Below, one piece after another: positions 54,129-56,724 of a stretch of 64,000 nt of DNA. The notes beneath the pieces are model-generated. The model did not search any database. It worked only from the letters and a program-made list of their open reading frames with translations, and was not told the DNA's origin. Numbering within the stretch: position 1 is the stretch's first letter; each line of letters opens with the position of its first letter. The position numbers were made by a program, and so were the translations under genes. The DNA is taken from NCBI GenBank assembly GCA_963675245.1, contig OY775910.1:256001-320000 (forward strand), written 5' to 3'. The DNA comes from Acholeplasmataceae bacterium (GTDB lineage: Bacteria > Bacillota_I > Bacilli_A > Acholeplasmatales > Acholeplasmataceae).

Positions 54129-54269
54129 ATTCCCCCATCCGACAATCATTAGTTAATGTATATTATAACATGGAATTAAAAAAGCCCCACTAAGGGCTTT
54201 GTTTATAAATTGAAGATATATAAGGGAAATGAGTACTAATCAATAGTTTAGGAGAACGTTCTATTCATA

Positions 54270-54650
54270 TCATGTTAATGTTGACTGATATGTTTCACCT
54301 GTTATGATAAAGAATACATTATCATCTTTGAATGCAATAATGAGATTTTTATATACCGCAAAAATTTGCGATAAATTTTCATCATCCATTCTTGATTCAT
54401 AATCTTGAAGACTAAAATATGCTTCAGCATCTTCGTTATTATCAAATTCTAAAATGTACGCTGCAAATTGTCCATTTTCATCTATTACACGATATTCATG
54501 AACGATATTATCAAATTCGCTTGTTGAAGTTTCAACAGTATAATGATTACTTTCTAAATCTTTAATGACATTATCTACAGAATAGCATCCAGTAAGTAAC
54601 GTCAAAAGTATTATAAATAATAGTAACGACAAAAGTTTTGAAATATTCAT
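54270..54650 (-). CDS. Hypothetical lipoprotein (cassette 4)
   Basis: Lipobox LLTG-C after hydrophobic stretch; GGGGG RBS; own promoter. Confidence 0.75.
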   Translation of the reverse strand: MNISKLLSLLLFIILLTLLTGCYSVDNVIKDLESNHYTVETSTSEFDNIVHEYRVIDENGQFAAYILEFDNNEDAEAYFSLQDYESRMDDENLSQIFAVYKNLIIAFKDDNVFFIITGETYQSTLT

Positions 54651-54719
54651 AATGCCCCCAATTAACATGTTTTCTTTTATTATATCACTTTATATCACCA
54701 AGAAATAGATTTTATTATT

Positions 54720-54757
54720 AAAAAATCCCTTAAAAAGGGATTCATTGTTCTAGTGGC
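54720..54757 (-). repeat. Eroded array repeat (terminator plus trace of tRNA 3' end)
   Basis: AAAAAATCCCTTAAAAAGGGATTCATTGTTCTAGTGGC matches 56612-56651. Confidence 0.7.
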
Positions 54758-54819
54758 ACAATGTAAAATATTTGAAACGTGAGTCATGATTTATAGCTAA
54801 TGACATATAAGACATAATA

Positions 54820-55005
54820 CTACTTTTCTTCATCTAATTCATTTTCTGGTTCGCTTTGTTTTAAGTAACCTGCAAGAAACATTACTGCAAAAATAAATAA
54901 CAATGCGATAGATCCTGCATTTATTGTAATTAAATAAATCGTTACACCTATCATCCCCAAAAAACCGACAATTGATAGCCGGACATTAAACTCTCTAAAA
55001 CTCAT
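54820..55005 (-). CDS. Small 2-TM membrane protein (cassette 3)
   Basis: GAGGGG RBS, own promoter; paralogue of 53949-54128. Confidence 0.75.
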   Translation of the reverse strand: MSFREFNVRLSIVGFLGMIGVTIYLITINAGSIALLFIFAVMFLAGYLKQSEPENELDEEK

Positions 55006-55063
55006 ATTACCCCTCCTCATTATAAAATTTTGATTATACTTATTATATCATACCTTTAAAAAA

Positions 55064-55144
55064 CAAAAAATCCCTCAACAAAGGGATTTATTTTTCTAAT
55101 AGCGATGCACGAGGGATTCGAACCCTCGATCGACGGCTTAGAAG
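55064..55144 (-). repeat. att-like direct repeat: 3' half of tRNA-Arg plus terminator
   Basis: Copy of 56611-56692; tRNA part 55100-55144 has 3 substitutions, including loss of CCA. Confidence 0.92.
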
Positions 55145-55178
55145 ATCATTTAGTCAGCACGAGGATTTTATAGTCAAT

Positions 55179-55847
55179 TTACAACTTAGACAGTTTTTTA
55201 AGGAATTTTGAAAACTTGCTAGGTTCCACATAGTTTATTTCTGATTTAACAAATCCTTTTAGTTTCTCTAAGTTTTTATGATACGATCTATTTATTTTTG
55301 TCACATTATCCTTATATTGCTTTTTATCAATATCTAATAGATTTTCATCACTAAAAGTATTTTCATATTCTAAAAATGATTCTCTTTTCTTCTTTTTGTC
55401 AAAATTAAACAATTTAATCGTGTCTTCCAAGAGATTTTTTTCTTCATTCATATTAAAATATTCTAATGAATCAATAATTTCATCGATATAGTTTACTAGA
55501 GATACTTCTCCTAAAACTTTGAAACCATATTCATGAATAAATCGTAAAAACTCATAGACTAAATAAACCTTAATAAATATAGTATCATTACTATTGATCA
55601 TTTTTTTAACATATTCCACTTTATCAAAATTTGTATAATATAACACATATTCCCAAATTATGTCTAAAATCTTTTCTTCTGGAATTCCTCGTAACAATTC
55701 ATATGATAGTGGATATGCCTTATAGAAGTTAACAATTTTACTTTTTCTTTCTTCTGCCTTCTTCATCATCTTTTCCATGTTAAATGAGAAAGCTTCACTT
55801 TTACTGATTCTCATTAATTTTTTAGCATGCTTGTTTTTTTTATACAT
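55179..55847 (-). CDS. Hypothetical soluble protein (cassette 2), weak DUF4375/DMP19-like pattern
   Basis: Very AT-rich ORF with GAGG RBS and own promoter; family resemblance by eye only. Confidence 0.65.
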   Translation of the reverse strand: MYKKNKHAKKLMRISKSEAFSFNMEKMMKKAEERKSKIVNFYKAYPLSYELLRGIPEEKILDIIWEYVLYYTNFDKVEYVKKMINSNDTIFIKVYLVYEFLRFIHEYGFKVLGEVSLVNYIDEIIDSLEYFNMNEEKNLLEDTIKLFNFDKKKKRESFLEYENTFSDENLLDIDKKQYKDNVTKINRSYHKNLEKLKGFVKSEINYVEPSKFSKFLKKLSKL

Positions 55848-55919
55848 AAGGATTTTCCTCAGAGTTTTCTTTAATTATATCACCGTAGGGCTCTTTAGAA
55901 AACGCCAAATTAACACTAA

Positions 55920-56000
55920 CAAAAAATCCCTTAACTAAGGGATTCATTTTTCTAATGGCGATGCACGAGGGATTCGAACCCCCGACCGACGGTTTAGAAG
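55920..56000 (-). repeat. att-like direct repeat: 3' half of tRNA-Arg plus terminator
   Basis: Copy of 56611-56692; tRNA part 55956-56000 has 1 substitution and starts exactly at anticodon loop CTTCTAA. Confidence 0.95.
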
Positions 56001-56049
56001 ACCTTCTAGTTTTAATAAAATTGTATTTAATTGAGATTTTTAGACTTGT

Positions 56050-56532
56050 TTATTTTTTCCATATACTCAACAAATACTCATAATCCTTTTTATCATATAG
56101 CAGTGTAATATAAGTATCCTCTTTCATTAAGTAATCAGGTTTTTTGATGTTCTCATCTGAATAAATAATTAAGATGTAAATGTCATCATTTTGGTTTCTA
56201 TATTTATTAAGATTAGATGTTTTTATTTGAAGTACTTCGTTGAAATTCATTTTCTTAACAACTCCAAATGGCCATCTAATGATTATGTTATCTCCTTCTA
56301 TATAACCCCATCTTACCCCTTGTTTTAGAAAAATAAAAATATATACCAAAATACTGCAAATGGCTAACAAGCTAAATATTATTAGAATTGTTGGTGTAGC
56401 TGTTGAATTGCTATTTCTTTGAAAATAAGCTAATAAGACAGCGAATATTGGTACAAAAACCAATAATATGCCACAGCCTAAGCCAAACAATAGGTAATTT
56501 CCTATATTTAATTTAAATCTATACTTACTCAT
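56050..56532 (-). CDS. Hypothetical membrane protein, 2 TM plus soluble domain (cassette 1)
   Basis: GGGGA RBS, own TGATATAAT promoter. Confidence 0.7.
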   Translation of the reverse strand: MSKYRFKLNIGNYLLFGLGCGILLVFVPIFAVLLAYFQRNSNSTATPTILIIFSLLAICSILVYIFIFLKQGVRWGYIEGDNIIIRWPFGVVKKMNFNEVLQIKTSNLNKYRNQNDDIYILIIYSDENIKKPDYLMKEDTYITLLYDKKDYEYLLSIWKK

Positions 56533-56647
56533 AAATCCCCACCATAGCATTATATCTTATTCTTATTATATCACCGTAGATCTCCCTTTCAAATAAGAAA
56601 TATTAGTCTACAAAAAAATCCCTTAACAAAGGGATTTGTTTTTCTAA

Positions 56648-56724
56648 TGGCGATGCACGAGGGATTCGAACCCCCGACCGACGGCTTAGAAGGCCGTTGC
56701 TCTATCCAGCTGAGCTAGTGCACC
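56648..56724 (-). tRNA. tRNA-Arg (anticodon TCT)
   Basis: GGTGCACTAGCTCAGCTGGATAGAGCAACGGCCTTCTAAGCCGTCGGTCGGGGGTTCGAATCCCTCGTGCATCGCCA, 77 nt, encoded CCA; promoter TTTACA-N17-TATAAT at 56770-56742. Confidence 0.98.

Follow-up and report, generated by a model that had tools for sequence, protein, structure and literature searches.

A row of one-gene units bounded by tRNA-Arg 3ʹ halves in an Acholeplasmataceae genome, and a cassette mechanism that may have built it

We analysed a 64,000-nucleotide stretch of the genome of an Acholeplasmataceae bacterium (contig OY775910.1, positions 256,001 to 320,000; hereafter the window), in which five small, co-oriented genes on the minus strand lie downstream of a single tRNA-Arg(TCT) gene, with repeats of the tRNA end between them. 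Coordinates are positions in this window unless another sequence is named, and the source genome, labelled G000, is complete at 1.63 Mb. Each unit of the array measures 0.35-0.9 kb and carries one gene. The target gene, tRNA-Arg(UCU), occupies positions 56648..56724 on the minus strand and encodes the only reader found for AGA, which makes up 48% of arginine codons. Its anticodon loop, CTTCTAA (56686..56692, minus strand), is the putative crossover core, and identity with every copy starts there.

All parts of the array lie on the minus strand. Moving outward from the tRNA, leader r0 (56565..56647) comprises an AATCCCT-type terminator (stem 56616-56637), a spacer and an extended -10 box that falls within a 15-mer at 56565-56579. 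The gene of cassette 1 follows (56050..56532; 160 amino acids, or 166 from an upstream ATG), and 49 bp past its stop codon begins r1 (55956..56000), a displaced tRNA 3ʹ half with one substitution (G40A). The r1 leader (55874..55955), with a terminator (stem 55924-55945) and a second copy of the 15-mer (55874-55888), precedes the gene of cassette 2 (55179..55847; 222 amino acids). The next displaced 3ʹ half, r2 (55100..55144), starts 34 bp past that stop codon and carries three substitutions (G47A, G51A and C76T). Its leader (55040..55099) has a terminator (stem 55068-55089) and a short spacer with TGATATAAT, and leads to the gene of cassette 3 (54820..55005), whose product is hydrophobic (61 amino acids, or 66 from an upstream ATG). 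At r3 (54676..54757) there is a GCCA remnant (54754-54757), a terminator of the same family (stem 54724-54742) and doubled -10-like boxes, followed by the gene of cassette 4 (54270..54650; 126 amino acids). Beyond it lie an ordinary AAGCC-type terminator hairpin, r4 (54181..54200), and a fifth gene (53949..54128; 59 amino acids, or 66 from an upstream ATG), which is a paralog of the cassette 3 gene.

By alignment to the tRNA, the repeat unit is the 45-nt 3ʹ half of tRNA-Arg from the anticodon loop through CCA. The sequence-only reading that preceded this work had described a series of such copies that worsens with distance from the tRNA, and its two 45-nt half-copies with one and three substitutions are confirmed, C76T making the CCA of r2 read CTA. 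Its third copy, consisting only of GCCA and the terminator (54720-54757), also proved homologous (BLAST E 5e-6 against the genome, with four terminator sites). The AATCCCT..AGGGATT terminator occurs at four sites in 1.63 Mb, all inside the window array, and because this type was found nowhere else in the genome we count r3 in the repeat series. The fourth member claimed, the similar hairpin r4, could not be established as a homologue of r0-r3: it scores 27 against 46-48 for them, its similarity ranks 14th among the 492 terminator-like hairpins of the genome, and it is probably unrelated to them. A further claim, that the two tRNA-proximal cassettes share sequence around their promoters that the distal ones lack, was overstated as a contrast, although the shared 15-mer does occur in exactly two genome copies. 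This 15-mer contains the extended -10 box TGATATAAT, which has 128 sites in the genome and is present in r2 and r3 too. Leader identity is 0.75 for r0-r1 against 0.77 for r0-r2 and 0.74 for r0-r3, so that the proximal pair is no closer, and whole leaders are 71-77% alike along the array independent of position.

The spacers of r0 and r1 are far more diverged than their tRNA halves. Units in the window end 34-49 bp past a stop codon, and the repeats start at the loop; units 1 and 2 are flanked on both sides by attachment (att) sites in the form of tRNA halves, and lack genes for integration or transfer. Because prophages in relatives cross over at the same loop, we take the repeats to be tRNA halves that were displaced when DNA inserted at the anticodon loop.

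The tRNA-Arg site was compared across species, there being no conspecific strains in the sample. The array is flanked by two conserved genes, a MarR-family gene upstream of the tRNA (56777..57229, minus strand) and, at the distal end, a Cof-type HAD hydrolase gene with its terminator (52981..53815, plus strand; terminator 53798-53815). Between marR and cof, all nine congeners differ (9/9), some being nearly empty and others holding large inserts. No relative examined has any of the array's five genes, distal ones included, at this locus. In the relative G002, a 13-kb plasmavirus-like prophage separates tRNA-Arg from a half copy. Phage L2 counterparts were found for five proteins of this prophage (ORF1, ORF3, ORF4, ORF14 and the integrase), which follow L2's gene order, and its displaced half is followed by a terminator and promoter box of the window type and then by an unrelated 183-aa gene. 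Prophages or their remnants, with crossover at the same loop, also occupy tRNA-Arg in G004, G044, G057, G059, G100, G149 and G155; the prophage terminators at this site differ in type from those of the window units. In G006, a prophage remnant lies tRNA-proximal to a unit that carries a different gene from the window's behind a leader with 89% identity to r0 (core DNA, 78-80%). The same leader is therefore found ahead of unrelated genes in G000, G006 and G002, and because the r0-like leaders of the two relatives precede other genes, we conclude that the leader travels with changing cargo. Likewise, because the prophage of G002 and the prophage remnant of G006 sit tRNA-proximal to units, we conclude that prophages do enter at the tRNA and push units outward.

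Several other features were encountered at these sites. At tRNA-Arg in G044 (L087, L088), two plasmavirus-like prophages of 12.9 kb each stand in tandem and have identical lists of open reading frames (ORFs), and both of their displaced tRNA halves are perfect. In G161 the whole tRNA-Arg gene is duplicated 220 bp apart (L093, 2704 and 2924), the second copy being altered at the loop. Phage L2 itself (L053) carries on its minus strand, at 5384-5431, a tRNA-like 3ʹ fragment with tRNA-Val GAC as its best match (E 8e-6), about 350 bp from the annotated putative attP (5029-5053), and the true attP of L2 may be this fragment. An unannotated small L2 gene at about 4865-4966 weakly matches (E 7e-4) the first gene of the G006 remnant. 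Scans for the repeat plus leader returned one record in a genome collection, an Acholeplasmataceae bacterium, and none among viral contigs; the single metagenome match, on an unrelated GC-rich contig, was rejected as chance. In a phage collection, the tRNA query found only phage tRNA genes among the 25 matches listed of 2479, and the G002 integrase found only distant integrases among the 15 listed of 369.

A genome-wide search of G000 for tRNA fragments revealed longer rows at tRNA-Phe and tRNA-Lys. The tRNA-Phe row (G000:C1:772658-783285, L057) has ten junctions, two of them stubs, with mostly one co-oriented gene each and a left arm conserved as TGCATGAAAC. Among the genes it carries are lipoprotein-like ones, one weakly WapI-like immunity gene, one for a 1469-aa GH3 glycosidase and one for a methyltransferase. 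Of 172 family genomes, 26 have the Phe junction motif, in some cases as a single 2-mismatch match that is perhaps chance, and it occurs at least four times in each of G000, G006, G059, G151, G161 and G170; rows with the conserved junction occur in two genera. Twenty-six of 40 scored sites in seven rows are stubs that lack the tRNA half and could not rebuild a tRNA, in a count that includes two tRNA genes themselves and uses a crude classifier that calls a gapped full copy a stub. Cassettes at tRNA-Phe have been transferred as units. G000 and G006 share a cassette with a 101-aa gene at 91.5% identity over the 532 bp from junction to junction; it stands fifth in G000 and first in G006, with different neighbours. 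Another cassette, shared by G151 and G161, is 93.5% identical over 445 bp, again junction to junction. A G151 gene that follows a Phe-type leader has 54% identity to the gene behind the Arg leader of G002, and Phe-type terminators and junctions occur at the tRNA-Arg locus of G170 (L142 7250-8100) and inside the Arg island of G149 (L119 3379-4110), which suggests cross-talk between the two cassette types.

Elements with an integrase were found at tRNA-Phe in G155, G175, G084, G097 and G020, none of them beside a cassette row examined. The complete element of G175 has a different left arm at its far end. In G155 (L063 4233-7417), tRNA-Phe is followed by a leader 99% like that of G000, a DUF2441 gene, an integrase gene and a Viral_Rep gene (PF02407), the far end being unassembled; this element is a candidate helper. 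The tRNA-Lys row of G000 (G000:C1:121853-151809; L058, L059) begins with a 17-kb element that has an integrase and matches of the L2-like ORF1/ORF14 type, followed by four units of 2.3-4.6 kb. The first three open with a helix-turn-helix gene, cargo lies on the opposite strand, and one unit has a homologue of the window's 60-aa genes. Further tRNA-end repeats in G000:C1 lie at Gln (with an integrase), Glu, Thr, Gly and Ser genes (990402-995299; 615336-616664; 849464-856051; 1089544-1093476; 1344231-1352391).

The cargo of the Arg array is largely without relatives. The cassette 1 protein reads as a membrane protein and has weak matches in 2 of 171 family genomes, with no match in Pfam, PHROG or PADLOC. 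The cassette 2 protein found only itself among 329 candidates of a large protein search, and shows a weak DMP19-like signal (Pfam E 1e-4, below the cut-off; Atlas 0.93, with low recognition). The cassette 3 gene shares 52% identity with its paralog at 53949 and 43% with a tRNA-Lys array gene, its product matching in 0 of 171 family genomes. The cassette 4 protein has a lipoprotein-like signal by reading and found only itself among 27 candidates of the large protein search. Neither PHROG nor PADLOC matched any of the five genes (0/5 each), and L2 ORF matches, which occur in G002, G004 and elsewhere in G000, were absent from the window array. When the five units were compared with 143 fetched loci (151 less eight loci of the array itself), no phage gene or phage DNA was detected. 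Elsewhere in the window, between topA and rnhB, lies a 326-aa ORF (46636-47616) that resembles an IS30-family transposase; it is missing from that place in G006.

The window holds no tyrosine recombinase (PF00589). Six are encoded elsewhere in the genome, of which two, in housekeeping context, look XerC/D-like by reading. The prophage integrases at the Arg site are 62-76% identical to one another, whereas the two element integrases of G000 reach only 33-35% identity to them, and this comparison revealed no cognate integrase in G000. The 278-282-aa genes that head the rows in G161 and G108 were considered as dedicated recombinases and rejected, as neither matches a recombinase family; the 282-aa gene of G108 (L079, G108:C17) is of the streptomycin adenylyltransferase family (PF04439, E 1e-61) and stands before a Phe-type junction as a unit of the cassette row.

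In our view the array probably represents an accretion island at a tRNA integration hotspot, composed of recombinase-free one-gene cassettes that were inserted at the anticodon loop by an integrase acting in trans and that retain a coarse polarity. A cassette would comprise a tRNA 3ʹ half from the anticodon loop, its own terminator and extended -10 promoter, one gene and a short left arm. The tyrosine integrase would probably be supplied by a visiting plasmavirus-like or Rep-integrase element, and a circular form of the cassette would recombine with the tRNA loop, such that the tRNA is restored with the incoming half while the resident half moves outward. We infer this circular intermediate, the enzyme and the order of events. 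The outermost copies would be the oldest, and the order would be polar only coarsely, the record being blurred where deletions occur between repeats, cassettes enter internal junctions, genes are exchanged behind a leader or newcomers bring their own tRNA alleles. Units would then stay for want of a cognate integrase, their cores being unbroken.

Several observations weigh against this account. No integrase adjoins any cassette row examined, and no joint that skips a unit was seen in contigs of four sequencing runs, which come from one study and drop rare variants. Unit-wise transfer was demonstrated for Phe cassettes and for none of the five near-orphan Arg genes, and the Arg leader is convincing in only 2 other genomes of 171. 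Moreover, the left arms of r1, r2 and the r1 of G006 do not score as plasmavirus arms, on a matrix built from eight prophage arms; scores as high as theirs are reached by 10-23% of 10-mers drawn at random from the genome. Three unit left arms share ACT at one offset, a similarity seen by eye that serves as a lead only.

The sequence-only reading went further and proposed a strict polar record, in which the tRNA is the entry point of every cassette, the copies lose sequence in clock-like fashion and eroded att sites lock the old cassettes in place. We regard this version as quite unlikely, although entry at the tRNA with outward push survives in coarse form, given the prophages of G002 and G006 and the state of the outermost copies. 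The window order of 1, 3 and a remnant fits it, and each of the four substitutions in the window is a G:C to A:T transition, but the gradient rests on two full copies whose counts do not differ significantly (binomial p=0.31). We therefore applied a within-array permutation test to the five arrays with the tRNA on the contig, excluding G059, G151 and G161, in which it lies off the contig, and setting the loss value of r3 to 41 by hand. Losses by rank are 1, 3 and remnant in the window; 0,3,2,2,24,22,2,8,1,9 at tRNA-Phe and 0,0,0,0,2 at tRNA-Lys of G000; and 23,4,4,4,0,9 at tRNA-Phe and 3,9 at tRNA-Arg of G006. The pooled p is 0.19 with stubs included and 0.052 for full-length copies only, or 0.27 and 0.065 without the window. 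The signal comes from the outermost full-length copy, which is the most altered in 5/5 arrays (chance product ~0.001, in a post hoc look), whereas the interiors of the long arrays show no gradient (tRNA-Phe of G000, rho 0.28, p 0.44; of G006, rho -0.33) and leaders, at 0.71-0.77, are trendless. As a control, two of seven prophage-displaced halves in relatives differ from the tRNA at two bases although both prophages have a full gene set; small mismatch counts do not measure age, because a newcomer can bring its own tRNA allele. Distal Phe-locus genes do have same-locus homologues in four congeners (G001, G002, G003 and G006), but these are reordered and partly only 47-55% identical, and the shared cassette ranks first in G006 and fifth in G000 with different neighbours. 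The far end of the arrays is old and the interior unordered; one versus three substitutions dates nothing, and decay is too weak as a clock. The expected amelioration is also absent, as GC content along the array is 0.27, 0.24, 0.32, 0.27 and 0.31 (genome, 0.34) and GC content at third codon positions is 0.26, 0.24, 0.26, 0.16 and 0.23, without trend. Nor is fixation by eroded sites supported, since r1 and r2 retain an unaltered loop core, which only r3 has lost. By reading of the fold, a G-U pair becomes A-U through G51A, and the products modelled for excision retain tRNA-Arg scores (117.9 and 123.5 against 122.6). The idea that loss of CCA makes excision lethal is weakened by these scores and by a CCA-adding-family enzyme encoded in the genome. 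The lack of a cognate integrase is a simpler explanation of why the cassettes persist.

The same units might instead be deletion remnants of larger integrative elements, like cis-mobilizable elements (CIMEs), that kept an attachment-proximal accessory gene, lost their integrase and replication genes and are not self-mobile. The tRNA-Lys array has such a look, the first unit of G006 joins a plasmavirus remnant to the tail of a cassette, and the G155 element places the G000-like leader and one gene directly before an integrase and Rep. Even so, this origin seems unlikely to us, as the five units showed no phage gene or DNA against the 143 loci, the terminators and left arms of the tRNA-Arg prophages are unlike theirs and the complete Phe element of G175 has another left arm. 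Repeated precise ends a few dozen bases past a stop codon, together with junction-to-junction sharing, are hard to produce by random deletion. A history in which the tRNA end, terminator and promoter were duplicated locally and the genes later replaced by illegitimate recombination, with no site-specific enzyme, could draw on the two paralogous small genes of the array (52%) and on the 220-bp duplication of the tRNA-Arg gene in G161. It is largely refuted, and we give it very little credence: the copies begin exactly at the loop that prophages use, the r0 and r1 spacers have diverged far beyond their tRNA halves, unlike a recent duplication, and the closest leader to r0 is in another species.

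Beyond the accretion of cassettes at one tRNA-Arg gene, we tentatively raise a wider reading, for which the odds seem to us somewhat unfavourable, in which Acholeplasmataceae maintain an integron-like economy of gene cassettes on tRNA anticodon loops and the Arg array represents a single small deposit of that economy. Entry at the tRNA would be by 'header' cassettes, each with a tRNA half, a terminator, a promoter and a gene, while promoterless 'follower' cassettes with a stub site of about 22 bp would enter internal junctions and be co-transcribed. Leaders of the Arg and Phe types would exchange genes, and passing plasmaviruses or Rep-integrase elements would lend the recombinase and also ferry cassettes between genera. 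If one-gene units do circulate between genera through tRNA-derived sites and a borrowed integrase, these wall-less bacteria have an analogue of the integron that attC-based searches and island finders requiring an integrase would have missed. The cargo of such a system would be orphan genes of membrane, lipoprotein and immunity-like kinds, joined in one relative by a gene of the aminoglycoside adenylyltransferase family. The interest thus lies in the wider system of promoter-equipped one-gene units, present also at tRNA-Phe, rather than in the gradient; mismatches between a tRNA and a displaced half can arrive with a newcomer and should not be taken as age. We found no paper on such cassettes in Acholeplasmataceae in the literature searched, which covered few subscription papers and no supplements.

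Related architectures are known, and except for phage L2 the comparisons below concern the parts of each source drawn on here. Islander uses displaced 3ʹ tRNA fragments to mark island ends, with an anticodon-centred crossover, and reports 125 tandems of at least two and four of at least three among 3919 islands (PMC4383910). The window likewise has directly oriented 3ʹ tRNA fragments downstream of the tRNA and a loop crossover, but Islander resolves tandems only if each member has its own integrase (PMC4383910), and the window units have none. An outward-push model has been stated for the tycheposon islands of Prochlorococcus (10.1101/2020.12.28.424599); tycheposons carry integrases and multi-gene cargo, whereas a window unit has one gene, a recurring terminator-promoter leader and no enzyme. 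Integrase-less stacks at a tRNA or tmRNA end are described in the tandem accretion of streptococcal CIMEs with integrative and conjugative or mobilizable elements (PMC5704250) and in the ssrA islands of Dehalococcoides (PMC3146451), in which att sites are retained, a neighbour's enzyme does the moving and distal parts are fixed; the array shares the retained att sites, and its units may likewise have been moved by an enzyme of another element. CIMEs are decayed large elements (PMC5704250), whereas the window units show no trace of lost modules and, unlike CIMEs, the units at tRNA-Phe move one gene at a time with exact ends, many of them bearing a short stub site. Repeat-marked additive islands have also been described in Methylophilaceae (PMC10872708). 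Prophages related to L2 integrate in Acholeplasma tRNA genes (ICTV profile, PMC12662186), as L2-like prophages do at tRNA-Arg in the relatives studied here, although the window units have no L2-like gene and differ from the prophages in arms and terminators. Stacking at tRNA genes and polar outward growth are thus already published, and the window array is too short to add to them.

Integron arrays, and the clusters of attC sites lacking integrases (CALINs), are rows of one-gene, mostly orphan, co-oriented units at recurring sites, and CALIN rows have no integrase. The window locus differs in that it has neither intI (no tyrosine recombinase) nor an attI/Pc platform and in that its full units have their own promoter and terminator. 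Its junctions align as tRNA halves and not as attC-like palindromes, a comparison made by alignment only, with no attC covariance model. In outcome, nevertheless, the array is integron-like, with one-gene, mostly orphan, co-oriented units between recurring sites.

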